DNA of 64,000 nt from an uncultured Porphyromonadaceae bacterium (GTDB lineage: Bacteria > Bacteroidota > Bacteroidia > Bacteroidales > Muribaculaceae). This document shows, piece by piece, positions 1-14,024 of the stretch. The number at the start of each line of letters is the position of its first letter. Position 1 is the stretch's first letter. The notes beneath the pieces were generated by a model, which was not told the origin of the DNA, searched no databases, and saw nothing but the letters and a program-made list of their open reading frames with translations. Made by a program: the position numbers and the translations under genes. The stretch is from the NCBI GenBank assembly GCA_900555715.1, contig USMC01000001.1:107128-171127 (forward strand). Direction: 5' to 3'.

Positions 1-73
1 GTGAAATAATATCTTCCGAACAGGCCATTAAACTCGGCTTATCAACGCAAATTTTCAGTAGGAACAACGAACA

Positions 74-1726
74 ATGATTGCTTCGGATTTAACGTGTTTA
101 TGGCAATACTCAAAAGGTTTTAGACTTAGGATTTTAACTACTATAATCCTAAGCTGTTTTGGCGTCATGTTTTCGCTTTTATTCGTGGAGACGATAAAGC
201 GACTATTGGATGATATATCTAACGAAATAGTTTTTTCATTCGTTTCTGCAATACTATATTTGATTGGATTTAAGGGCGGTCAGATAATATGCGAACAGTG
301 TGAAATTTTCTTACGAAGTAGTAATCGAGTAAGACTTGAAAATCATCTCGAATATAATTTATTTTGTAAGTTGACAAATAGTCCTGTTTATCATACTACA
401 AACTTTCATTCCGGTGATAGCATTTACCGATTGTCTTCTGATGCTGGTATCGTTGCAGAAGGCATATCATATACATTGCCCATGCTGATTTATTCGGTTG
501 TTCAGTTGTTTGCCACTTGGATTTATCTGATGACAATGCAACCCGGACTAACTGTTCTTTTGGTACTAATTGGCCCGATTATAATACTTGCAACATACTA
601 TTATACCAAGATTTTATCACCTGTTAGCAAAACTGTAAGAAAACATGGCAGTGAAGTAAATCAATATCTTCAGGAGCATATACAACATAAAGAACTTATT
701 GCAATATTAGAGCAACATAAATTTGTTCAAGACAGTGCAAAAGCAATTCAGAATAGATTTATTGGTTCACTCCTGAAGAAAATTAGAATAACCGTAGGTG
801 CAGATTCTATAACTGAAATTGGATTTGCAATAAGTTATTTATCAATATTTATATGGGGTATTTACTCTATTCCTGATGGTCTTATGACATACGGAACTTT
901 CGTTGTATTCCTTCAACTTGTAGGTCAGTTACAGCGTCCAGTTTTCATGTTTAAGGACCAGTACCCATCATTTATTTCAGCGTTAGCCTCTACTGAACGT
1001 GTTCAAGAGATATTTAATTTGCCAGAAGATTTTAGCAGAAGCAAAAAGATATTGAATGGAGAACTTGGGGTTTGCTTTGAAAACGTAAGTTTTGCTTATC
1101 CGAATAATCAGACACAAGTATTGGAACAATTTAACTGGGATTTCAAACCATGTTCAATAACTGCAATAATGGGAGAAACAGGTGTTGGCAAGAGCACTTT
1201 AGTTAAACTATTATTAGGTTTGCTATATCCAGATAAGGGTACTATTAAAATTTACAGTACGGAAAATGATAGAACCGAATCGGTAAGTAATGATACTCGA
1301 TGTAATTTTATCTATGTGCCACAAGGTAATAATTTACTCAGTGGAAGCATACGGTATAATTTACAATTGGGTAATCCAAATGCTTCTGATGAAGAAATGC
1401 GTCATGCTTTATGGGTGGCTGCCGGAGATTTTGTTTATACCCAACTTCCAGAAGGACTTGATACAGTCATTGGAGAGAGGGGGTTCTCTTTGAGTGAAGG
1501 TCAATCTCAACGTATATCAATTGCCAGAGGTTTATTGAAATCAGGGTCAGTTTTAATACTTGATGAACCGACTTCTGCTCTTGATAAAGAGACTGAGAAA
1601 ACTTTTTATAACCGACTTTTCACTTCGTGTAAAGGGAAAACCATAATAATCATAACACATAGAGATAATGAGACATCTTATTTTAATGACATTCTAACAC
1701 TTAAACCAATCAGAAACAACAAATAA
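74..1726 (+). CDS. ABC transporter, fused permease/ATP-binding protein (type I exporter half-transporter)
   Basis: The N-terminal ~300 aa are hydrophobic and read as multi-TM. Walker A GETGVGKST, ABC signature LSEGQSQRISIARGL and Walker B ILDEPTSALD are all present. There is no C39 peptidase domain. Codon usage is AT-rich, unlike the bulk of the window. Confidence 0.85.
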   Translation: MIASDLTCLWQYSKGFRLRILTTIILSCFGVMFSLLFVETIKRLLDDISNEIVFSFVSAILYLIGFKGGQIICEQCEIFLRSSNRVRLENHLEYNLFCKLTNSPVYHTTNFHSGDSIYRLSSDAGIVAEGISYTLPMLIYSVVQLFATWIYLMTMQPGLTVLLVLIGPIIILATYYYTKILSPVSKTVRKHGSEVNQYLQEHIQHKELIAILEQHKFVQDSAKAIQNRFIGSLLKKIRITVGADSITEIGFAISYLSIFIWGIYSIPDGLMTYGTFVVFLQLVGQLQRPVFMFKDQYPSFISALASTERVQEIFNLPEDFSRSKKILNGELGVCFENVSFAYPNNQTQVLEQFNWDFKPCSITAIMGETGVGKSTLVKLLLGLLYPDKGTIKIYSTENDRTESVSNDTRCNFIYVPQGNNLLSGSIRYNLQLGNPNASDEEMRHALWVAAGDFVYTQLPEGLDTVIGERGFSLSEGQSQRISIARGLLKSGSVLILDEPTSALDKETEKTFYNRLFTSCKGKTIIIITHRDNETSYFNDILTLKPIRNNK

Positions 1727-1737
1727 CAACAACAGAT

Positions 1738-4700
1738 ATGAAAGCAACATTTCTTAAACCAATCGCTTGCTGTGTATCTTTACTTCTAATTGTGTTTTGC
1801 TCGGCATTGCCTGCTAATGCCGGCGTTACGCCCATACAAAGTAGAGATGCCAGTTCCCCGGCGCAGAAAGCCGAGGCTCGTACAATTAGTGGAGTAGTTC
1901 TTGATGCACAGACTAAAGAACCTCTAATCGGTGCCACTATAAAGGATGCCAATTCCAACACTGGCACCACAACAGACTTGGATGGAAAGTATTCCATTAA
2001 GGTTACTCCATCGACAAAGGAACTCACAGTCTCTTTTGTAGGCTATGTTCCAAGCAAGGTAAAATTAGGGACGGACAACATTCTCAATGTTCTCTTAGAC
2101 GCTTCGAGTGAAATGCTCAATGAGGTGGTAGTTACAGGTATCCAATCCATAGAAAGAGGACGTGCCACTGGTGCTTTTTCAATTCTTGATCAGGATGACA
2201 TGAGCAATATTTATTCGACAAGTTTGACAGAAAAACTTGAAGGTGCAGTCCCCGGATTGTTTGTTGATAAGAATAATGACATAACCATACGAGGATTAGG
2301 CTCTTTAAATGCAAGCACAAAGCCTCTTATTGTAGTAGATGGGTTCCCTTTAGAAAGTTCTGAGCTTAACCTAAATCCTAATGATATTGAACAAATCAGT
2401 ATTCTTAAAGACGCTGCATCTGCTTCGATTTGGGGTATTCGTGCAGCAAACGGCGTTATTGTGGTGACCACTAAAAAAGGCAATGGTAATGGTCGAGTAA
2501 ATGTTAATTACTCCGGTACTGTTACATCAAGCGCAAAGCCTAAATGGTCAGATTTGCATATATTATCCTCAGACCAATATGTCAGTGCTAATTTTGCCAA
2601 TATTCTTGGTCAAGGAATCAGTTCATCCGCTTACGGAGGTCTTAATGAATTGGAAAAAATCTATCAATCGTATGATAATGGCATTTATTCACTTGACGAA
2701 GCATGGAATCAAGTGAATCTGCTTGGTCGCTTCAATAATGCCAAACAAATTTCCGATAATTTTTATCGACATGCTTTCACGCAACAACACAATGTTTCGT
2801 TGTCTTCAAATAGCGAGCGTGTCTCTACTTACGCATCGTTAAGTTTTGACCAAAACAAGATGCAACTACGCGGCAATGAGTATAATAAGTTTAATCTATT
2901 GGTAAATAATGACTTCAGGCTGCATCGTACATTTACAGTGACTCTTGGCATTAGGGGAACATATCAAAATTCAAAAAATAATGGTGTTGATATGACCGGA
3001 TATGAGCCTTGGATGAGAATTCTTAATGATGATGGTTCATATTACAATGAATATAATGGAATCTCCGAATCATGGGCCGAGGAATGTTATGCTTTAGGTA
3101 TGCGCGACTGGCATAAGAATTCTTTGGAAATCATGAGAATGAATGATAATCAAAGCAAGGAGTATAATCTTTCATCATCTTTAAGATTGGTTTGGAAACC
3201 AATTTCAGGACTGACGCTGTCATCACAAGGCACATATGAGTTTGGAAATACTCAAGGGATTCAGTTCTTCTCACAGGATCATTATAAAACTCGCAACTTG
3301 ACTAATCGCTTTACAGAAGTGTCCGTAGAAGATGGACATCCTGTAGGCATTGTCGCAAATCATCTGCCTACCAGCGGAGGTATTAAAAGCCTCAATGAAA
3401 CCCATCTTCAGTCTTATTCAATAAGAAACATGATTTCTTACAATAATGCTTTCAAGGATTTTGAGTATCGCGCTATGGTAGGCAATGAGATTTATTCTCT
3501 TGAAGGTAATCAATATTCCAACTGGCTTTGGGGATTTGACCCGGATCTTCTGACCTACCAAAGTGTGGATTTAGCCTCTTTACAAAGTGGAGTGTATGGT
3601 TACAACGGAAGAATTCAAACCCTTGATGAAGATGAGTATTCTACATCATACATAGAAAGACTTGAAAGATATGTTTCTTGGTTTGGAACTGCTAATATCA
3701 GTTATGCCAACAAGTATGACCTCTTTGGAAGCATTCGTTTGGATCAAACTAACCTGCTAACCAACTCAAGCAAGTTTAGAAATAATCCTTCGTGGTCAGT
3801 AGGTGCTAAATGGAACCTCAATAAAGAGACCTTCATGCATTCTCCATTGATTGATAATTTGGCACTGAGAGTATCATATGGCTTAACAGGAAATATTGAC
3901 AAGCGAACTGGTCCAGATATTGTTGGACAAGCATCTTCCGATTATAATATTCCGAACTTAAACTATATTATGATTACCAATCCGGCAAATCCGTTGCTTG
4001 GCTGGGAAAAGACCTATAGTTGGAATGTCGGTGTTGATTATATGTTCTTCAATGGTCGTATTTCAGGTGCGTTTGATTTCTATCATAAAAAGTCTAAGGG
4101 GCTATTAGCAGATGTTGACGTTGACCCTACAATCGGCTGGAGTAAGTTCTTCAAAAATTCCGCGACTGTATGCAATACCGGTTTTGATTGGTCTATACAC
4201 GGACGTATTCTTACTGATACACCTGTAAAGTGGGATGTTACATTGAATCTATCGTATAATAAAAATAAGGTAACAGAGATGAATTATACTCCAAGTAGAA
4301 AGGGGGCGTGCAAAGGGAATCCTATGCAAGGTTATCCTATTGGAAGTATTGCAGTACATAGATACGGAGGTCTCGATGAATTTGGTGACCCCACATTTAT
4401 GAGAAAAGGTGATGATACTAAGTACCATTACTCTGAATTAAATTCTCTTGGTCTTGATGACCTTGAATATGTAGGTTCAACAAATCCTCCAGTATTTGGC
4501 AGCTTATCCAGTTTATTGCGGTATCGTGATTTCTCTTTAAGTTTCATGTTGACATATCGTTTTGGCAGCAAACTCAGATTACCAGCACCAAAGAATACAG
4601 CTACCGGCATGTATAGTGAATGGTTTGGAGAGGAATACCGTTGGATCGAAGGTGCCAACAATGACAACAAATGGGTTCCCAGTCAGTACACAGAAAGTCC

Positions 4701-4995
4701 TTGGTCGCCGAAAAACCGTGATGAGTGTTTGCTCTTCAGCGATAAGATGGTAGATAGTGGAGATGCAATCTATTTTAGAAGCATTAAATTTATGTATGAC
4801 GCATCAAGAATCCTCAATAAAATTGGCATCAAAGGTGGAAGCGTAAGCATCGGTGGTGAAAACCTCTGTTTCTGGGCCAAAAATAAATATAATCTCGATC
4901 CCGACCAGATTTCTGTAAGTGGTGAGGTTTATGATACATATTGCACATTTGGCAAGCAACCTCGACTTGTAGTTGGTCTTAACTTGAACTTCTAA
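1738..4995 (+). CDS. SusC/RagA-family TonB-linked outer membrane protein
   Basis: 1085 aa with a signal peptide. The N-terminal carboxypeptidase-regulatory-like segment reads ISGVVLDAQTKEPLIGATI...TDLDGKYSI. Plug motifs DITIRGLGS and ILKDAASASIWGIRAANGVIVVTTKKG are present. A long barrel ends in a terminal F. The gene sits immediately upstream of a SusD-like gene. Confidence 0.9.
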   Translation: MKATFLKPIACCVSLLLIVFCSALPANAGVTPIQSRDASSPAQKAEARTISGVVLDAQTKEPLIGATIKDANSNTGTTTDLDGKYSIKVTPSTKELTVSFVGYVPSKVKLGTDNILNVLLDASSEMLNEVVVTGIQSIERGRATGAFSILDQDDMSNIYSTSLTEKLEGAVPGLFVDKNNDITIRGLGSLNASTKPLIVVDGFPLESSELNLNPNDIEQISILKDAASASIWGIRAANGVIVVTTKKGNGNGRVNVNYSGTVTSSAKPKWSDLHILSSDQYVSANFANILGQGISSSAYGGLNELEKIYQSYDNGIYSLDEAWNQVNLLGRFNNAKQISDNFYRHAFTQQHNVSLSSNSERVSTYASLSFDQNKMQLRGNEYNKFNLLVNNDFRLHRTFTVTLGIRGTYQNSKNNGVDMTGYEPWMRILNDDGSYYNEYNGISESWAEECYALGMRDWHKNSLEIMRMNDNQSKEYNLSSSLRLVWKPISGLTLSSQGTYEFGNTQGIQFFSQDHYKTRNLTNRFTEVSVEDGHPVGIVANHLPTSGGIKSLNETHLQSYSIRNMISYNNAFKDFEYRAMVGNEIYSLEGNQYSNWLWGFDPDLLTYQSVDLASLQSGVYGYNGRIQTLDEDEYSTSYIERLERYVSWFGTANISYANKYDLFGSIRLDQTNLLTNSSKFRNNPSWSVGAKWNLNKETFMHSPLIDNLALRVSYGLTGNIDKRTGPDIVGQASSDYNIPNLNYIMITNPANPLLGWEKTYSWNVGVDYMFFNGRISGAFDFYHKKSKGLLADVDVDPTIGWSKFFKNSATVCNTGFDWSIHGRILTDTPVKWDVTLNLSYNKNKVTEMNYTPSRKGACKGNPMQGYPIGSIAVHRYGGLDEFGDPTFMRKGDDTKYHYSELNSLGLDDLEYVGSTNPPVFGSLSSLLRYRDFSLSFMLTYRFGSKLRLPAPKNTATGMYSEWFGEEYRWIEGANNDNKWVPSQYTESPWSPKNRDECLLFSDKMVDSGDAIYFRSIKFMYDASRILNKIGIKGGSVSIGGENLCFWAKNKYNLDPDQISVSGEVYDTYCTFGKQPRLVVGLNLNF

Positions 4996-5007
4996 ATATC
5001 AGATAAA

Positions 5008-6405
5008 ATGAAACATTACATCATATGTATGATAGTAGCTCTATTAGGGCTAACCTCATGTCAAGATTTTCTTGACGAGACTCCAAAAGGAACGCTTATT
5101 CCGAAAACCGTAAATGATTTCGGAATGATGCTTGACAACTACGACTATGACAACTGCATCGGTTACGGACAGTTTATCACATTGATGATGACAGATGACG
5201 TGACGATTCCTGAAGATAAATCTTGGAAGTATTCCTCGTGGGGCCTCAATGGATATACGTGGGAAGATTTTATCTATAGCGCATCGGAGGATGATGATTG
5301 CTACAATAATTTCTACCATGTAATCTATATCTGTAATTATATCCTAAATAACTTGGCAGACGCACCGGATGGAACAAAATTTACACGCGAGTATGTTGAA
5401 GGTGCGGCGCGTTTTCATAGAGCGTTTGCCTATTTCTCTCTTGTCAACCTCTATGCAAAGCATTATGACGTTTCATCAGCGTCAACGGACCTCGGTGTCC
5501 CTCTGATACTCGATGCTGACCCCGAATTACAACTTGGCAGATCAACAGTTCAGGAGGTGTATAATCAGATAGATAAAGATTTATCTATCGCGAAGGATTT
5601 ACTTAATGCAGAAATACCAGAGTATTCATTTAGGCCCAATAAAACGGCTGTTTTAGCACTGTTAGCTCGTGTAAGACTGTATCAAGGTAATTATGAAGAA
5701 TGTGCCGACTACGCATCTAAAGCAATGGCGATATGCCCTAAGCCATACGATTTTAACAATTACGCTCTTGACGATGTTAATCCTGATTTTGGAATAAATG
5801 GATTCCCGTTTTATGGATGGGAAGTCCAAGATGTAATCTGTTATAAAGGGTCTGGATATGGTCCTAACGATGACCAAGATTATAATCTCTCAGATGAACT
5901 GATTCAACTTTTCAATAAGGAAACGGATTTACGTTGGAATGTATTTGTGACTACTTATCCAATTTTTGCGGGAGAAGAACCCGAAGGAGATAGTCCGAGG
6001 ACCGCTTTTACGTTCCCAAATAACAGAGGTCTAAATGTTGGAGAGTTATATTTAACGGGGGCTGAAGCATTTGCTCGTTTGAATAGAATAGATGATGCAC
6101 TTTCTGCTCTGAACGAATTGGGGGTTAAACGTCATAAAACCGGTACATATTCTGATGTGACAGAAAGAGATCCTAATAAACTCCTATCACTCATCCTTGA
6201 TGAAAGGAGGCGTGAATGTATTCAACAGGGTATAAGATGGTTTGACCTCAAAAGACTGAATAAGGAACCTCGTTTTAGAAAAACCATAACCCATGAATTA
6301 GAGGGAGAAACTTACAGCTTGGAACCTGATGATAATCATTATGTTTTGCCAATACCGTTATTTGTTATAAATAATAACCCATTGGTAGAGCAAAATCCCA
6401 GATAA
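5008..6405 (+). CDS. SusD/RagB-family nutrient-binding outer membrane lipoprotein
   Basis: Lipoprotein signal LLGLTSC. Its 465-aa size and position 13 bp after the SusC stop fit a SusD partner. The sequence is SusD-like, with a TPR-like helical fold region (YNQIDKDLSIAKDLL, LLARVRLYQGNYEECADYASKAM). Confidence 0.8.
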   Translation: MKHYIICMIVALLGLTSCQDFLDETPKGTLIPKTVNDFGMMLDNYDYDNCIGYGQFITLMMTDDVTIPEDKSWKYSSWGLNGYTWEDFIYSASEDDDCYNNFYHVIYICNYILNNLADAPDGTKFTREYVEGAARFHRAFAYFSLVNLYAKHYDVSSASTDLGVPLILDADPELQLGRSTVQEVYNQIDKDLSIAKDLLNAEIPEYSFRPNKTAVLALLARVRLYQGNYEECADYASKAMAICPKPYDFNNYALDDVNPDFGINGFPFYGWEVQDVICYKGSGYGPNDDQDYNLSDELIQLFNKETDLRWNVFVTTYPIFAGEEPEGDSPRTAFTFPNNRGLNVGELYLTGAEAFARLNRIDDALSALNELGVKRHKTGTYSDVTERDPNKLLSLILDERRRECIQQGIRWFDLKRLNKEPRFRKTITHELEGETYSLEPDDNHYVLPIPLFVINNNPLVEQNPR

Positions 6406-6480
6406 GTAACATAAAAGCCGAGGGAACAAATATTCAATTATTATTGAATTATGTTTCTTCGGCTTAAAACACAAGTAGCT

Positions 6481-7044
6481 ATGAGATATTTGATTTTAAT
6501 ATTATCGTGTGTAGTTATTTCTTCCATTGCGTTTTCAAACGAAAATTATTCTGCGGAATATCAAGGAGTGAAAATTTTGACCAATGATGGATATGAACCT
6601 AATGACACAAGTGTAATCTTGGAAATAATTGATACTTGTGCATACCTTCATTATTCGGAAAGAACAGATACTTTCTTGTTCCGCACGAATTTGAATAATT
6701 GGAAGATATATCGTGGACCCTCACGAGCGTCTAATGCTAACAAAAGGATGAAGATATCCAAAGACTCCATTATACTACAAGTCGATAATCACCAAGGTAA
6801 TACTCTATTTTACAATCGAGTTGGACTTAATGGAAATATCGAGAATAAAGTCCAGTGTATGGAATGTAATGGAGAAGGTGTTATATACTGCTACAAATGT
6901 GGTGGAACAGGTAACGTATTACCAAACCCAAAGGGAGGCCCGGATGCGGCTGTAGGAATTTGCCCAAAGTGTCATGGCATCAAATCGCTCAAAAAAGCTA
7001 TTTGTCAAAAATGCAGTGGTTCAGGACAAGTAATAATTCCGTAA
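6481..7044 (+). CDS. secreted protein with C-terminal DnaJ-type CR zinc-finger repeats (4x CxxCxG)
   Basis: The start was moved to the Met of MRYLILILSCVVISSIAFS, which gives a signal peptide. The C-terminus carries CMECNGEG, CYKCGGTG, CPKCHG and CQKCSGSG, i.e. four CxxCxG(xG) units as in the DnaJ cysteine-rich domain. Composition is AT-rich. The gene is followed by a hairpin terminator. Confidence 0.55.
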   Translation: MRYLILILSCVVISSIAFSNENYSAEYQGVKILTNDGYEPNDTSVILEIIDTCAYLHYSERTDTFLFRTNLNNWKIYRGPSRASNANKRMKISKDSIILQVDNHQGNTLFYNRVGLNGNIENKVQCMECNGEGVIYCYKCGGTGNVLPNPKGGPDAAVGICPKCHGIKSLKKAICQKCSGSGQVIIP

Positions 7045-8029: not shown

Positions 8030-9340
8030 TTAGGCGGTCATTCTCTCCTTGATTAGTCGGGCGTTTGAGTTCACAAGGTCGATAATGCGGTCGTGGTACT
8101 CGGTATCCTTGTTATATTTGCCGTGGCACTGCACAACTTTGAGTGTCTGCAAGTCAACCTCTACCGTCTCTATTATGGTATCGCCAATCCTTGCCGACAA
8201 TACCAGCGTGTTCTTCTTAAGGTAGTAGGACGATGAGAATACGCAGATGTGCTGTGTGTTACCCTCTTGGCAGTATTCCTCTATGCTCTCAAGCACCTTC
8301 ACCGATATTTCATTGTCGGAGATTACCAGACCGAAGAACTTGGATTTTAGAGCCTTGAACTGTTCCTCCTGCTCTTTCTCTCGGAGCAGTCTTTCCTCGG
8401 CTCTCCTACGCTCGGCGTCCTCACGCTCCCGTCTGCGTCTGTCCTCTATCATTCGGCTCAATCTGTCGTGCGCCTCTATGAAATCTTCTGGGCAGATGTT
8501 CTTGGGATTGCGGAGGTCTTTGCCGATGTTCTTCAGCATCCGCAGATAGTCGCACCACATTCCGATGTTGTTGATATGATAGCGGTGGCGTTTGGCGATA
8601 AGGTACGATGCCCAAAATTCATCCGCATTGCAGGGATTGGAGAGAAAGTATTTCATTTCCTCAATCTCTCCGGCTTTCATCAGCGTCTCCATTCTTGGGT
8701 CGGCAAGCAGAGCCTTGAAAAGTCTGACGGGGGATACTCCGTAGAAATCGCCCTTGAAGCCGTTGCGTTGGAGTTGGGGTATTACCTTAATTCTCGGATA
8801 TACCTCACTCCATGCGACAACATCATCATACAGTGGGTTGTGCGGGCGTATCTCCATGTCGCTCCAATAAGACCAGCAGTCGCAGTAATGGAAAGTAAAT
8901 CCACGGAGCAATGCCATATCGGTAACTTTGCCTTCCGGAGAAATCCACCTTTGCACGACCTCCTGACAATAGAGTTGTCTGACCTCCCCCTTACGGCTTT
9001 CGCTCGTTATCAGCGACACACGGATTACTTGAAAACCCTTGTGTACTGTTATGACACTGAAATATGTGGTTTCCTTATGGGTGCGTTTGCGGGTGTCCTT
9101 CACTTTCAGTTCAGTACCGCAGTGAGGGCATTTGCAACCGGCAATAGTGTCGCAAAGGTTGCCTTTCTCTCCCTTCCAAACGTGTCCGCAGTCTGAACAT
9201 GTCATTGTTCCGCTATTTGTGCGATAGGCGAAATGCTCAATGCAGTGGCGGTATGCCCATTTCTCTTGTGTCGCGGTTATGGGGCGCAGTGTGGCGGATA
9301 GTGCTGCCACTTGCTTTTGTAATGCTGTCTTGGGTTTCAT
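8030..9340 (-). CDS. PcfJ-like conjugative-element protein
   Basis: 436 aa. N-terminal zinc-ribbon cysteine pairs (CSDCGHVW...CKCPHCG) and a central Arg/Glu-rich coiled segment (EDRRRREREDAERRRAEERLLREKEQEEQ) are present. Overall it resembles PcfJ-like proteins of Bacteroidales conjugative plasmids and transposons. It lies immediately upstream of a PcfK-like gene, the canonical pairing. Confidence 0.65.
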   Translation of the reverse strand: MKPKTALQKQVAALSATLRPITATQEKWAYRHCIEHFAYRTNSGTMTCSDCGHVWKGEKGNLCDTIAGCKCPHCGTELKVKDTRKRTHKETTYFSVITVHKGFQVIRVSLITSESRKGEVRQLYCQEVVQRWISPEGKVTDMALLRGFTFHYCDCWSYWSDMEIRPHNPLYDDVVAWSEVYPRIKVIPQLQRNGFKGDFYGVSPVRLFKALLADPRMETLMKAGEIEEMKYFLSNPCNADEFWASYLIAKRHRYHINNIGMWCDYLRMLKNIGKDLRNPKNICPEDFIEAHDRLSRMIEDRRRREREDAERRRAEERLLREKEQEEQFKALKSKFFGLVISDNEISVKVLESIEEYCQEGNTQHICVFSSSYYLKKNTLVLSARIGDTIIETVEVDLQTLKVVQCHGKYNKDTEYHDRIIDLVNSNARLIKERMTA

Positions 9341-9351
9341 AGCCGTAATGA

Positions 9352-9786
9352 TTAGAAGTCGAATAGACTGGGTTGTTCAACTTGGGTTTTCTTTTCACTC
9401 ACCTTCTTGGATTGCGTGGGTCTGCGCATTTTAGCCATTTCCTCATCACGGAGTCTGTTGATGGCGTCCTGCCGTGCCTGTTCCTTTTCTTCCTCGGTGA
9501 GTTCTACCGTATGGTTCACTACCACTTGGCAGTTGATAGGCTTGCCGACCTCTATCTCATTTTCTTCATAGTAATGGACTGCCATTCCGAAGATTTCATC
9601 GTCTGCGAAGCCGTTGCAACCGCTTTTCTGCACTTGGTTGATGATAAAAGTACAGCAGTCGGATACTGACTTTGATGGATTGGCATACTTGACAGCGAAC
9701 AGAGCGTCATTCTCCGCCATAGCTTCAAGATAAGCCTTGATTGTGTCTTGGAACGATTGTGTCCCTTTCATCGTGTTGCTTGCCAT
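9352..9786 (-). CDS. PcfK-like protein
   Basis: 144-aa acidic protein ending in a Lys-rich tail. It resembles PcfK-like family members, which are found next to PcfJ in Bacteroidales mobile elements. Confidence 0.6.
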   Translation of the reverse strand: MASNTMKGTQSFQDTIKAYLEAMAENDALFAVKYANPSKSVSDCCTFIINQVQKSGCNGFADDEIFGMAVHYYEENEIEVGKPINCQVVVNHTVELTEEEKEQARQDAINRLRDEEMAKMRRPTQSKKVSEKKTQVEQPSLFDF

Positions 9787-9799
9787 AGTCGTAAATGTT

Positions 9800-10033
9800 T
9801 TAGAGTGTATTCATTATCCAATAGATTATCCCTAATGCGGAGAGGATTGAGATTATCCACCCGATGCCTCGGAATATTCTTTTAATCAGCCAACCGATAG
9901 TCAGACCAACGATTGCTCCGATGACAATCAGTATCACTTTTGCCACCTTTGCAACCGCCTTGCTTATGCGGTATTGATAGGAGGATTGGTGAGCTTGCCT
10001 TGACCTATTTATATGTTGTTCTGTGGCTTTCAT
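9800..10033 (-). CDS. small predicted membrane protein
   Basis: 77 aa with two hydrophobic helices (VILIVIGAIVGLTIGWLI and IGWIISILSALGIIYWI). It is in series with the PcfK-like gene. Confidence 0.3.
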   Translation of the reverse strand: MKATEQHINRSRQAHQSSYQYRISKAVAKVAKVILIVIGAIVGLTIGWLIKRIFRGIGWIISILSALGIIYWIMNTL

Positions 10034-10086
10034 ATCGGTGGGGGCTTTTTTTTAACCTCATGCGTCCAAAGACAGTGTGGTTGTTT

Positions 10087-10228
10087 GAGTTGCTTGACAC
10101 CTGAAAGGCGTGTGGCACAAAAGAAGGGATGTTCACGGCAAGACGGAAAAATACTACTCGCAGAGTGGAGATTTTTCCGGATCGACGCGAATGTCCCTTT
10201 GCCACACGTTTATTTTGGCAAGCAACTC
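10087..10228. repeat. long imperfect inverted repeat (arms ~10087-10123 and ~10197-10228)
   Basis: The left arm gagttgcttgacacctgaaaggcgtgtggcacaaaag pairs with the reverse complement of ctttgccacacgtttattttggcaagcaactc. Both ends match exactly (GAGTTGCTTG/CAAGCAACTC and CGTGTGGCA/TGCCACACG), around a ~75-nt central loop. Confidence 0.6.
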
Positions 10229-10395
10229 CAACAGACCCACAAGACTCAGGTACGCATCAGATGAAAATGGCCTCCCCGATATACAGGAAAGCCACAGGAC
10301 GACATTGAAATCAAAAATGCCGGACTTTACTGAACGGCATCATATTGAAAAATCTGGGGAAACAAGAAAATGGCAGAAAGAGAAAAGAAAGGAGA

Positions 10396-10866
10396 GTGCA
10401 ATCCCGGAACAGGATAATGTCCGGCATTTGTTCAGCCGGAGAGCAGCGCAGGCGCAGGGCAAATGACGGTCTTTATCCCCGTTGATTGAATTACCTGCGG
10501 GACATGGAATGACTGTGTTAAGTCGTAAGATGTGAACAACCGTCCCCGGTTGCACATCTTTCGGCGACACGGATATTCGATGTCCAGCATCGCAGTGTGG
10601 CAATGTAGAAATCCGGAACCGTCCTGTCAAGGACAACAATCAGGCAATAAGAAAAATAATGGAGTATGCAATCCCGGAACAGGATAATGTCCGGCATTTG
10701 TTCAAGCCGGAGAGCAGCGCAGGCGCAGGGCAAATGACGGTCTTTATCCCCGTGGATTGAATTACCTGCAGGACATGGAATGACCGTGTTCAGTCGTAAG
10801 ATGCGGACAACCGTCTCCGGTTGCACATCTTCCGGCGACACGGCTATTCGATGTCCAGCATCGCAG
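10396..10866. repeat. two direct tandem copies of a ~200-nt non-coding unit (10396-10595 and 10667-10866, ~95% identical, 71-nt spacer)
   Basis: The copies were aligned by eye. There are about 10 substitutions plus one 1-nt indel (ttcagccgg versus ttcaagccgg). Each unit contains the local hairpins ccggaac...gtccgg and caaccg-tctc-cggttg. The minus-strand ORFs across the units diverge by a frameshift and by mostly non-synonymous changes, so they are not coding. Confidence 0.85.
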
Positions 10867-11173
10867 CGAAGTCCAGCGAAGTATATTTCAGATTCAGTCA
10901 TCTGACATTATTAAGTATCAAAAATTATGAGTACTTTTGTGTGCAAAATTACGAATTGGAGTTACGGCTACTTAATAGTGACCCCGATTATGGGGCTGCG
11001 AGAGGTGTACTTTCCGGTGTTGTCATAGGTAAAAACAGGCAAATTACGATAGTTAAAAATCCTTAACACAAGCCAAAAATCTAAAATTCAATTTACTCGG
11101 CTTTCCGTCAACTTCCACAAAAGTACACGATTAGTACCCACGTCTCTCCAAACCCCTCTGAAAATCACCGAGT

Positions 11174-11208
11174 TTGCCCAAATAAGAAAAAATTTGTAAT
11201 TTTGTGGA
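11174..11208 (+). promoter_or_regulatory. candidate Bacteroidetes sigma-A promoter for leuS (-33 TTTG ... -7 TAATTTTG)
   Basis: gagTTTGccc and TAATTTTG are separated by ~21 nt, matching the Bacteroides TTTG/TAnnTTTG consensus. They lie ~40 nt upstream of the leuS ATG. Confidence 0.35.
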
Positions 11209-11249
11209 TTAATAGATATTTAAAGCATCCACAGAAATCAGTCACAGCT

Positions 11250-14024
11250 ATGGAATATAATCATAAAGAAATCGAGCCGCGCGTCCGGCAGTACTGGAAA
11301 GACAAAGACATCTACCGTGTGGACATCGATCCGTCGCGTCCGAAATATTATGTACTCGACATGTTTCCCTATCCATCGGGCGCCGGTCTGCACGTCGGTC
11401 ATCCCTTAGGTTATATTTCAAGCGATATCTTCGCCCGCTACAAACGTCTGCGCGGGTTTAACGTCCTACACCCGATGGGCTACGACGCCTACGGTCTTCC
11501 CGCCGAACAATATGCCATCCAGACCGGGCAGCACCCCGAAGTGACGACGCGCATCAATGTGGAGCGCTACGGCAAGCAGCTCGACAATATAGGATTGAGC
11601 TTTGACTGGAGCCGCCAGATACGCACCTGCGATCCGGAGTTCTATAAATGGACGCAGTGGGCTTTCCTGCGCATGTTCGAAAGCTATTACGACACCGCCG
11701 CCGACCGCGCCATGCCTGTTACCGGGCTCGTGGCTCACTTTGAGAAAGAAGGCAGCGCCGGAGTTCATGCCGCCTGCGGCAAGGAACTGCATTTCACGGC
11801 TGCCGAATGGAATGCGATGAGCGCCAAGGAGAAGAGCGATGTGCTGATGAACTACCGTCTTGCCTATCTCGGCAACTCGATGGTGAACTGGTGTCCGAAG
11901 CTCGGCACAGTGCTTGCCAACGACGAGGTGAGCGAAGGCGTCTCTGTCCGCGGAGGCTACCCTGTGGAGCAGAAAGAGATGTGGCAGTGGTTCCTGCGTG
12001 TGTCGGCGTATGCCGAGCGTCTTCTCAAAGGTCTTGACCGCATCGACTGGTCCGACTCCATCAAAGAGACACAGCGCAACTGGATAGGCCGCAGCGAAGG
12101 CGCCGAGATGCATTTCCGCATCGACGGTCGCGACGACATCGATCTTGAAATATTCACCACCCGCGCCGACACAGTCTTCGGCGTGACATTCATGGTTCTC
12201 GCACCGGAGAGCAAATACGTCGCTCAGCTTACGACTCCGGAGCAGCGTGCCGCTGTGGACGCATATCTCGAGTCCATCAAGCACCGCACCGAACGCGAGC
12301 GCATGATAGACAAGAAGGTGACAGGCGTTTTCAGCGGTTCGTATGCCATCAATCCGCTGTCGGGCAAGAAGGTTCCGGTATGGATCAGCGATTATGTCCT
12401 CGCAGGCTACGGCACCGGCGCCATCATGGCAGTGCCGGCGCATGACAGCCGCGACTACGCTTTCGCCCGCCATTTCGACCTGCCGGTGATTCCTCTTATC
12501 GAAGGCGCCGATGTGAGTGAGGCTTCGTTTGATGCCAAGGAGGGCAAGATGATAAATTCGGCCGGTCCGGAGCTGAACCTCAACGGCATGGATGTGAAAG
12601 ACGCCATCGCCGCCGCCAAGAAATATATCGAGAAAGCAGGGATAGGACGCGTGAAAGTGAACTATCGCCTCCGCGACGCCATTTTCAGCCGCCAGCGCTA
12701 CTGGGGCGAGCCCATACCCATCTGCTACGTCGACGGCATCCCGCAGCCTTACGAAAATCTGCCCCTCGAACTGCCCGAAATCGACAAATATTTGCCTACC
12801 GAGACGGGCGAGCCGCCGCTGGGACGTGCTAAAGACTGGCATACTCCCGAAGGCTACCCGCTCGAACTCAATACCATGCCCGGCTTCGCCGGATCGTCGG
12901 CATACTACCTGCGGTATATGGATCCGCACAACGACGGTGCTCTTGTGTCGAAGGAAGCCAACGGCTACTGGCGCAGCGTCGACCTCTACGTCGGCGGCAG
13001 CGAGCATGCCACAGGGCATCTCATCTACAGCCGGTTCTGGAACAAGTTCCTTTTCGACTACGGCTATGTGGTCGAGGACGAGCCTTTCCGCAAGCTCATC
13101 AACCAGGGCATGATTCAGGGTCGCACAAGCTTTGTCTACCGTATCAAGGACACCAATACTTTTGTCACTGCCGGAAAGAAAGATCAGTACGACACCACAC
13201 CCATACGCGTCGACATCAACATGGTCGACAACGATGTGCTCGACCAGGATGCTTTCCGCGCCTGGCGCCCCGAGTTTGCTGACGCGCAGTTTGTCTGCGA
13301 GGACGACGGACGCTATGTATGCGGCTGGGCGGTTGAGAAGATGTCGAAGTCGATGTTCAACGTCGTCAATCCCGACGACATCGTCGAACGCTACGGCGCC
13401 GATACTCTCCGCCTCTACGAAATGTTCCTCGGTCCTATCGAGCAGAGCAAACCATGGAACACGCACGGCATCGACGGTGTCTACCGTTTCCTCAAGAAAT
13501 TCTGGAGCCTCTATTACAAGGGCGACACTCTCCTTGTCGACGACAGCAAGCCGTCGGAAGAGAGCCTGCGCAGCCTCCACAAGCTCATCAGGAAGGTGAC
13601 TGCCGACATCGAGGCGTTCTCGTTCAACACGTCTGTTGCGGCGTTTATGATATGTGTCAACGAACTCGCACAGCAGAAATGCAGCTCGCGCGAAGTTCTT
13701 GAGCCGCTTGTCGTTCTTCTTGCGCCTTTCGCTCCCCACATCGCCGAGGAGCTGTGGCAGAAGGCTCTCGGTTACGACACGAGTGTCGTCGATGCCGCAT
13801 GGCCCGAGTACAACGAAGACTACCTCAAGGAGTCGACAGTGACGATGGCTGTGTCGTTCAACGGCAAGGCACGTTTCAACATCAGTGTTCCGGCAGATGC
13901 TTCCGCCGAAGTGGCGCAGGAGACAGCGCTTGCCGATCCTGCCGCAGCGAAGTGGCTCGACGGCAAGACCGTGCGCAAGGTCATCGTGGTGCCCGGTAAA
14001 ATCGTCAACATTGTCGTGGGCTGA
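11250..14024 (+). CDS. leuS: leucine--tRNA ligase
   Basis: HIGH motif [21 protein letters not shown] motif [10 protein letters not shown], ~925 aa. The start was set at [17 protein letters not shown]. Confidence 0.95.

Follow-up and report, generated by a model that had tools for sequence, protein, structure and literature searches.

In this study, we analysed a 64,000-nt stretch of DNA (hereafter the window) from an uncultured Porphyromonadaceae bacterium of the Muribaculaceae (contig USMC01000001.1 of assembly GCA_900555715.1, positions 107,128 to 171,127 of the forward strand), in which two tandem direct repeats lie in the intergenic region upstream of leuS. To the left of this region is an operon on the minus strand. 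Its first gene (9800–10033) encodes a 77-aa protein, predicted from its translation to have two transmembrane segments and represented by an equivalent small open reading frame (ORF) in divergent families; it is followed by genes for a PcfK-like protein (9352–9786; Pfam PF14058, E = 2.9e-62) and a PcfJ-like protein (8030–9340; Pfam PF14284, E = 1.1e-42). To the right, on the plus strand, is leuS (11250–14024; Pfam tRNA-synt_1_2, tRNA-synt_1 and Anticodon_1), the host gene that flanks an integrative and conjugative element (ICE) of the CTnDOT family. Our analysis demonstrated that the repeats are copies of a conserved two-hairpin noncoding module and that they belong to a hairpin array of the order A, B-C, B-C at the right end of this ICE.

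Results

The exact PcfK protein occurs on at least 10 contigs with differing flanks, and the element lies beside at least eight different host genes; the flanks of the PcfK-bearing contigs include genes for a GxDLY lipase, MatE, Dus, guaA, a polyprenyl synthase and a leucine-rich repeat protein, among others. In independent insertions, homology to the window extends from PcfK to 11200–11214 (about 11204) and is then lost, at a CTnDOT-type core, GTAATTTTG. The shared sequence finishes with ...AAAAATTnGTAATTTTGC, corresponding to the GTAnnTTTGC core typical of CTnDOT-family elements. Because the independent insertions end at the core at about 11204, the region 10034–11204 is the noncoding right end of a CTnDOT-family ICE. 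The contig matching the window carries traM, traN, traO, the Toprim primase gene traP, traQ and a lysozyme gene upstream on the plus strand, and the arrangement is likewise convergent in canonical relatives, where the PcfK operon comes after the tra operon and runs against it. All the context looked for in an ICE of this family, that is, a tra operon, PcfJ/PcfK and a GTAnnTTTGC end, was thus found. The hosts of the ICE are mostly Muribaculaceae and other Bacteroidales. A tRNA scan found no tRNA, so the island is not tRNA-targeted. The location at an island/chromosome junction, which the earlier note on this DNA had proposed, agrees with the end of homology in the independent insertions.

That note had described two direct repeats of about 200 nt, about 95% identical and separated by a 71-nt spacer. 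The repeat itself was recovered, with slightly larger units, an overall identity of about 93% and a shorter spacer. A repeat search gave 94% identity between 10434–10595 and 10705–10866 (spacing 271) and 92% between 10383–10434 and 10653–10704 (spacing 270), and BLAST aligned 10383–10596 with 10653–10866 (214 columns, 93.5%, E = 4e-90) and continued more weakly, at 92.4%, as far as 10372 and 10643. The period is 270 nt, and 14 substitutions and one 1-nt indel separate the two units in a MAFFT pairwise alignment. BLAST revealed no further copy within the 64-kb window. Unit 1 (proximal; plus strand, 10383–10596) holds stem-loops B1 (10397–10490) and C1 (10493–10592), which match our covariance models with 106.9 and 122.4 bits, respectively, while unit 2 (distal; plus strand, 10653–10867) holds B2 (10667–10761; 119 bits) and C2 (10764–10863; 118.9 bits). 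The inter-unit spacer (10597–10652), delimited by the alignment of both periods and the BLAST extension, has a unique part of about 47–57 nt and contains a small hairpin, GTCCT-GTCA-AGGAC; its last 10 nt or so start an A/G-rich lead-in that is repeated before each unit. An 11-nt motif, ATGTCCRGCAT, is present on the plus strand at 10417, 10580, 10687 and 10851, so that in each unit one copy lies close to where B starts and another close to where C ends, and an inverted copy is found at 10315–10329.

The view that the repeats are noncoding held up well. A 127-aa ORF on the minus strand (10518–10901) is called as a gene on several public contigs. It covers unit 2, the spacer and part of unit 1 (10518–10596), ignoring the unit boundaries, and it is missing or different in copies of the region that are 93–97% identical (L001, L006 and L009). 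A 99-aa ORF on the same strand (10340–10639) also crosses the units. Since these ORFs are not conserved, single-nucleotide indels separate the unit copies and no Pfam match was obtained for the repeat-spanning ORF, we regard the units as noncoding and the 127-aa ORF as almost certainly spurious.

Folding of a single unit gave −86.8 kcal/mol for the plus strand as RNA (z = −5.0 against shuffled sequence) and −47.0 kcal/mol for the same strand as DNA (z = −5.2); the minus strand was the weaker of the two strands, at −72 kcal/mol (z = −3.3). The plus-strand fold consists of two long stem-loops, B (about 10399–10488) and C (about 10497–10588), with lengths of about 95 and 100 nt, and the alignment of 36 unique unit sequences yielded a two-hairpin consensus of 63 pairs. 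In B, 96% of the cells were paired and both sides had changed in 17 of the 30 pairs, against 8.4 ± 1.8 compensatory pairs in shuffles and two to nine in slid controls; in C, 16 of 30 pairs were compensatory, against 7.2 ± 1.6 in shuffles, with the reservation that the B and C alignments were fitted to covariance models, which favours the structure, and that the slid controls share this bias only partly. The earlier suggestion that the units are structured is therefore borne out both by the folding of one unit and by covariation in relatives. Its individual pairings fared unevenly. The CAACCG-TCYC-CGGTTG hairpin is real and forms the apex of stem-loop C in the consensus structure. A local CCGGAAC..GTCCGG hairpin lies outside the consensus fold, where its bases pair within the long stem-loop B. 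The proposed long-range pair between CCGGAGAG and TCTCCGG is fully complementary only in unit 2, and it gains no support from covariation, the variants CCGTAGAG and CCATAGAG being uncompensated. As the note had also reported, there was no sign of a riboswitch: an Rfam cmscan of 9700–11400 on both strands at E ≤ 10 gave only a spurious long noncoding RNA match (8.2 bits).

The two stem-loops are found well beyond the close relatives of the window. The B model detected two copies about 240 nt apart in L023 (4663–4994) and L041 (8860–9190), two loci of a divergent ICE lineage whose PcfK is about 77–83% identical, and single copies in L067, L068, L070, L071, L075 and L027; the C model detected single copies in more than 20 divergent loci. 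All these matches in divergent loci are on one same strand. A gapless direct-repeat search in the divergent loci had found nothing, and it was the covariance model that later revealed the B pairs of L023 and L041. Because this lineage also has two B copies, duplication of the B-C module is, on this comparison, either recurrent or old.

Among the genome and metagenome loci, the B-C module is present in one to three copies with a period of 270–275 nt: one in L007, L011 and L060, for example, three in L012 and L107, and two in most loci. As the copy number differs between ICE copies, the duplication behaves like a variable-number tandem repeat. Proximal and distal units form no separate orthologous groups (mean identities of 0.92, 0.91, 0.92 and 0.91), which suggests repeated exchange or repeated duplication of the modules. 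The single-copy variant L007 resembles a deletion between two ATGTCCRGCAT motifs. Of the origins considered in the earlier note, a satellite-like repeat at the junction came closest, because the copy number varies from one to three between element copies. The description falls short in that each unit is composed of two conserved, covarying stem-loops, and what makes the finding more than a simple satellite at the junction is the array to which the unit belongs, which is conserved, covarying, strand-specific and common among the PcfK-bearing relatives examined.

The first member of this array, a giant imperfect hairpin of 305 nt (hairpin A; plus strand, 10007–10311), is located immediately upstream of the units and had been missed in the earlier note. 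As RNA, its plus strand folds at −150.4 kcal/mol (z = −12.2) and its minus strand at −133.5 kcal/mol (z = −10.0); as DNA, the hairpin has −80.4 kcal/mol (z = −9.4). It is the most stable of the 89 local stem-loops in the window, the runner-up having −89.7 kcal/mol. The minus-strand 77-aa ORF begins inside the base of the hairpin, so that its start codon (10033) and its 5′ region overlap with the left arm. An nhmmer search yielded 42 unique homologues, in whose alignment 97.8% of the cells were paired and 21 of 52 pairs had changed on both sides, compared with 6.0 ± 1.6 compensatory pairs in shuffles and one to 10 in slid controls. When PcfK-bearing loci were scanned de novo, 65 unique loci showed one giant hairpin upstream of the PcfK operon and 13 showed none; the loci covered included canonical elements of Bacteroides and Prevotella with a PcfK of only about 60% identity. 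These hairpins are 180–340 nt long, with folding energies of −80 to −162 kcal/mol, and the hairpin families examined have three features in common, namely AAATAC...CGCAG...TGGAGATTTT at the apex, TTTTTTT(AACC)ATGCGTC at the base and, on the opposite strand, a small two-transmembrane ORF whose start lies within the base of the left arm or just beyond it. L036, L050 and L069 carry about 40 additional nt at the apex (alignment columns 165–214), which form an extra small stem and show that the apex tolerates insertions beside the AAATAC/TGGAGATTTT motif.

The plus strand folded more stably than the minus strand in all 42 hairpin A homologues and in all 36 units, with RNA as well as DNA parameters. 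Changes on one side of a pair were nearly all of the G-C/G-U or U-A/U-G type on the plus strand, which correspond to C-A mismatches on the minus strand. For the PcfK operon, the plus strand serves as template, and for the tra operon as sense strand. Taken together, the strand bias and the one-sided changes indicate that selection sees a single-stranded molecule of plus-strand sequence, and this molecule is either plus-strand DNA or plus-sense RNA.

Beyond the units, the terminal part of the ICE (plus strand, 10868–11204) is, given the homology end at 11200–11214 and the positions of its motifs, the probable arm region of the attachment site (att). The sequence GTAnnTTTG occurs four times in the last 275 bp of the ICE, at 10931–10939 (plus), 10944–10952 (minus), 11117–11125 (minus) and 11196–11204 (plus), the last of which is the junction core. 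These copies are probably core-type or arm-type sites of the integrase. They also match the TAnnTTTG promoter box, so that motif scans cannot separate the two. At the very end of the element, an outward-facing Bacteroidetes-type promoter-like site (plus strand, 11173–11204), read from the sequence and with its end conserved in all insertions, consists of TTTG (11173–11176), 20 nt and TAATTTTG (11197–11204), and is located 46 nt upstream of the leuS ATG; here, TAATTTTG doubles as the att core. When the junctions of L001–L010 and L113–L115 were compared, the flanking host gene pointed away from the junction in about eight of 10 independent insertions, with its start 15–156 nt off. Promoter −7 boxes thus seem to be the insertion targets of the ICE, and the gene downstream, in this case leuS, seems to have its promoter replaced by the element.

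Discussion

Which of the two plus-strand molecules is under selection bears directly on the function of the array. With somewhat less than even confidence, we favour the reading that the array acts as folded single-stranded DNA (ssDNA), that is, as a putative Frpo-like ssDNA promoter and/or a single-strand origin. In this model, hairpins on the incoming single strand would restore duplex structure after conjugative transfer. The folded strand would be the template strand of the adjacent PcfK/PcfJ operon, and hairpin A, which abuts the first gene of the operon, would act as a Frpo-type ssDNA promoter. The B/C modules upstream of hairpin A would provide extra entry or priming sites, i.e., a single-strand origin, at which RNA polymerase or the DnaG-like primase TraP of the ICE might start synthesis of the complementary strand. 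A role as ssDNA is favoured because the ICE passes through a single-stranded stage, because ssDNA promoters and single-strand origins are built as arrays of long hairpins in noncoding regions, and because hairpin A sits where a Frpo-type promoter would, on the template strand. Two features expected of Frpo/ssi elements were found here: the folded strand is the template of the adjoining downstream genes, and the long intrastrand hairpin is far stabler than shuffled sequence. In most families, no conserved promoter box was found on the plus strand upstream of hairpin A, which favours ssDNA over an RNA gene.

A number of observations weigh against this proposal. The polarity of transfer of CTnDOT-type elements was looked for in the literature and not found. 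A rule that the relaxase enters last would make the plus strand the transferred strand; this rule is not warranted for the gene layout of CTnDOT-type elements. An Hfr-type experiment with CTnERL by Whittle in 2006 reportedly may point to the opposite strand. Between the array and the start of the tra operon lie traM to traQ, the lysozyme gene and about 13 kb of cargo, and the CTnDOT oriT is located beyond traA (PMC3809561). Because the tra operon and the cargo separate the array from oriT, the array is not in a leading region of the plasmid type. On the right arm of hairpin A, which would serve as surrogate non-template strand, no consistent Bacteroidetes −33/−7 box was found, most families having no match: a perfect TACCTTTG is present only in the canonical Bacteroides/Prevotella group, and the element studied here has a 7/8 match, TTATTTTG. 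Stem-loops B and C contain no promoter boxes. The near-fixation of several G-U pairs would be more usual in an RNA. By blastn, no match to the array was obtained in 72,556 plasmids, and with it no similarity to the ssi/Frpo elements known from plasmids; a blastn comparison with phages gave no match either. The downstream genes give little help: Pfam, PHROGs and NCBIfam returned only names for PcfK and PcfJ, sequence searches of the PDB were empty, and the AlphaFold model of PcfK was unusable (predicted local distance difference test score of 47).

The anatomy of the array nevertheless resembles several known systems. Frpo/ssi promoters are roughly 300 nt long. They form secondary DNA structures that mimic double-stranded DNA (dsDNA) (PMC11541004). 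Like those in the leading regions of F-like and IncI plasmids, hairpin A is a long imperfect one-strand hairpin of about 300 nt with internal loops and bulges, it lies directly upstream of the operon whose template strand folds, and it is accompanied by several related hairpins in one noncoding region of a conjugative element. Unlike them, the array has no sequence similarity to Frpo/ssi, and the tra operon comes between it and oriT; the promoter boxes of the host RNA polymerase are −33 TTTG and −7 TAnnTTTG in place of −35/−10, with no consistent box here, and the downstream genes, PcfK and PcfJ, differ from ssb, psiB and ardA. Among ICEs, ICEBs1 and Tn916 have known single-strand origins (PMC5812530). 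As in ssoA/ssoU of rolling-circle plasmids, ICEBs1 sso1 and the Tn916 sso, the array is a noncoding cluster of stable hairpins, specific in strand and orientation, in an element with a single-stranded stage; it differs from them in the absence of CS-6 and of homology, and in its extent of about 0.85 kb with a 305-nt hairpin, tandem arrangement and variable copy number. In spite of the similar anatomy, we therefore do not count the array as a member of the Frpo/ssi or sso groups, given the lack of homology, the lack of CS-6 and the position away from oriT. The origin hairpins of filamentous phages and of phage G4 are recognized by RNA polymerase or DnaG primase. The array is similar to the B/C hairpins of the filamentous-phage minus-strand origin and to the G4 complementary-strand origin in having adjacent long hairpins on the strand that enters the cell or, for the ICE, would enter it, and the ICE encodes the DnaG-like primase TraP, for which a role here is speculation; the type of element is different and there is no sequence relation. 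Integron attC sites are likewise imperfect palindromes that fold strand-selectively as single strands and are repeated in arrays, whereas the present units have no R/L boxes at their ends, no cassettes between copies, no IntI and longer stems. Finally, RteR of CTnDOT is a 90-nt trans-acting small RNA that affects the tra operon (PMC7366714). The array shares with RteR and other Bacteroides small RNAs of CTnDOT its noncoding nature and the ICE family, and differs in consisting of 95–305-nt hairpins at the element end that are known here from sequence alone.

The main rival to the ssDNA reading is a structured plus-sense RNA. A large noncoding RNA transcribed from the plus strand over hairpin A and the B/C modules would be antisense to the 5′ end of the 77-aa/PcfK operon and might regulate this operon, or the life cycle of the ICE, at the RNA level, and we consider this possible, if rather unlikely. 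The strand-specific covariation fits such an RNA equally well, wobble pairs are abundant and include the nearly fixed G-U pairs, and the start-codon region of the operon has its antisense sequence in the left arm of hairpin A. Three loci, L062, L068 and L071, even have a plus-strand TAnnTTTG box 24–27 nt upstream of the hairpin. Most families, however, have no conserved plus-strand box before hairpin A, there is no terminator-like end, and no Rfam family matched even at E ≤ 10. In addition, the near-perfect duplex of 150 bp that hairpin A would form as RNA would be a substrate of RNase III.

It is improbable that the mRNA of the PcfK operon starts at an inward promoter near the ICE end, such as TACTTTTG at 11118–11125 on the minus strand, and has the array as its long, structured minus-sense 5′ leader, with hairpin A sequestering the translation start of the first ORF. 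Promoter-like minus-strand boxes are present at 11118–11125 and 10944–10951, good folds are obtained for the minus strand as well (hairpin A, z = −10; unit, z = −3.3), and the start codon is inside the stem. On the other hand, the plus strand is stabler in 78 of 78 sequences, the one-sided changes would be C-A mismatches in a minus-sense RNA, and the spacing between −33 and −7 is off (23 nt). The boxes need not be promoters, because they coincide with the GTAnnTTTG integrase-core-like repeats.

Slightly less probable still are double-stranded binding sites for ICE proteins, whether integrase arm sites, sites for the accessory proteins Xis/Exc, or partition or regulatory sites, with the hairpins as a by-product of palindromes. 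Such sites would fit the position of the units near the att end, the tolerance of copy-number variation, and the motif ATGTCCRGCAT with its four regular positions and its inverted copy at 10315–10329. Palindromes that bind proteins, however, would not be expected to show compensatory, strand-asymmetric changes over about 30 (B and C) to about 50 (A) scored pairs. Known CTnDOT arm-type sites span about 200 bp, and the units, at 340–820 bp from the core, lie beyond this span.

That the repeat encodes a protein is very improbable: the 127-aa and 99-aa ORFs exist and the former has been annotated repeatedly, but its loss or alteration in nearly identical copies, the single-nucleotide indels, the empty Pfam search and the disregard of unit boundaries all argue otherwise. 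A cis-regulatory leader of leuS (T-box, riboswitch or attenuator), which the earlier note had considered, has only the position upstream of leuS in its favour and is hardly credible, as the independent insertion sites led us to reject it: 10034–11204 travels with the mobile element and stands elsewhere beside Dus, guaA, MatE, polyprenyl synthase and other genes, both the ICE/host junction and the probable leuS promoter (11173–11204) are downstream of the units, and no Rfam family was matched.

Several other candidates were rejected. Duplicated att or target-site sequences, another proposal of the earlier note, do not fit, since the two copies are located within the element, 340–820 bp from its end, and are conserved in all the insertions. 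A remnant of a miniature inverted-repeat transposable element or an insertion sequence was likewise discarded: there is no other copy in the window, no dispersed copies were found, and across the loci with matches the copies are only tandem and at the same ICE position. A diversity-generating retroelement is not indicated, the 14 substitutions being spread over eight types with T/C the commonest and no reverse transcriptase being present among the neighbouring genes. For an integron attC site, only one chance GTTRRRY was found, at 10517 inside a unit, and for an ssoA-type origin, no CS-6 sequence (TAGCGW) was found on either strand of 10000–10900.

Among gut Bacteroidales, antibiotic-resistance and cargo genes are carried mainly by ICEs of the CTnDOT type. 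We consider it evenly balanced whether the CTnDOT-family ICEs of these bacteria carry, as a family-wide and so far undescribed feature, a structured element of about 0.6–0.9 kb in which a hairpin of 200–340 nt (conserved apex AAATAC...CGCAG...TGGAGATTTT) is followed by conserved hairpins of 95–100 nt, and which would represent either a putative first ssDNA promoter/origin of the Bacteroidota or a new class of large noncoding RNA controlling establishment genes, its activity tuned by the number of B/C modules. The hairpin array beside the PcfK/PcfJ operon offers a concrete candidate, open to mutation, for the priming of the incoming strand or the expression of the first genes in a new host. If this is true, the concept of ssDNA promoters and single-strand origins would extend to a phylum with different promoter rules. 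At a practical level, the repeat accounts for a ‘hypothetical protein’ that is repeatedly and spuriously called in metagenome annotations, and the variation in B-C copy number provides a marker for typing copies of this ICE.

Two further observations concern the neighbouring genes. Residues 262–379 of PcfJ gave a weak NCBIfam match to a type III-E CRISPR-associated RpoE-like sigma factor (E = 0.003 and 17 bits, far below the cut-off), and the N-terminus of PcfJ gave zinc-ribbon matches, which hints that PcfJ may bind nucleic acid or RNA polymerase. A cargo block of low GC content (35–40%) lies between the tra and PcfK operons, at 1–7044 of the window and at 4264–16971 of L114, and contains, in order, its own tyrosine recombinase, radical-SAM proteins, ClpP, an ABC exporter, a SusC/SusD pair and a Cys-rich DnaJ-like protein; the ABC/SusC/SusD genes of the block are those present at 1–7044 of the window. 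This block may be a module for the production or uptake of a peptide, resembling those for ribosomally synthesized and post-translationally modified peptides, that was inserted into the ICE.

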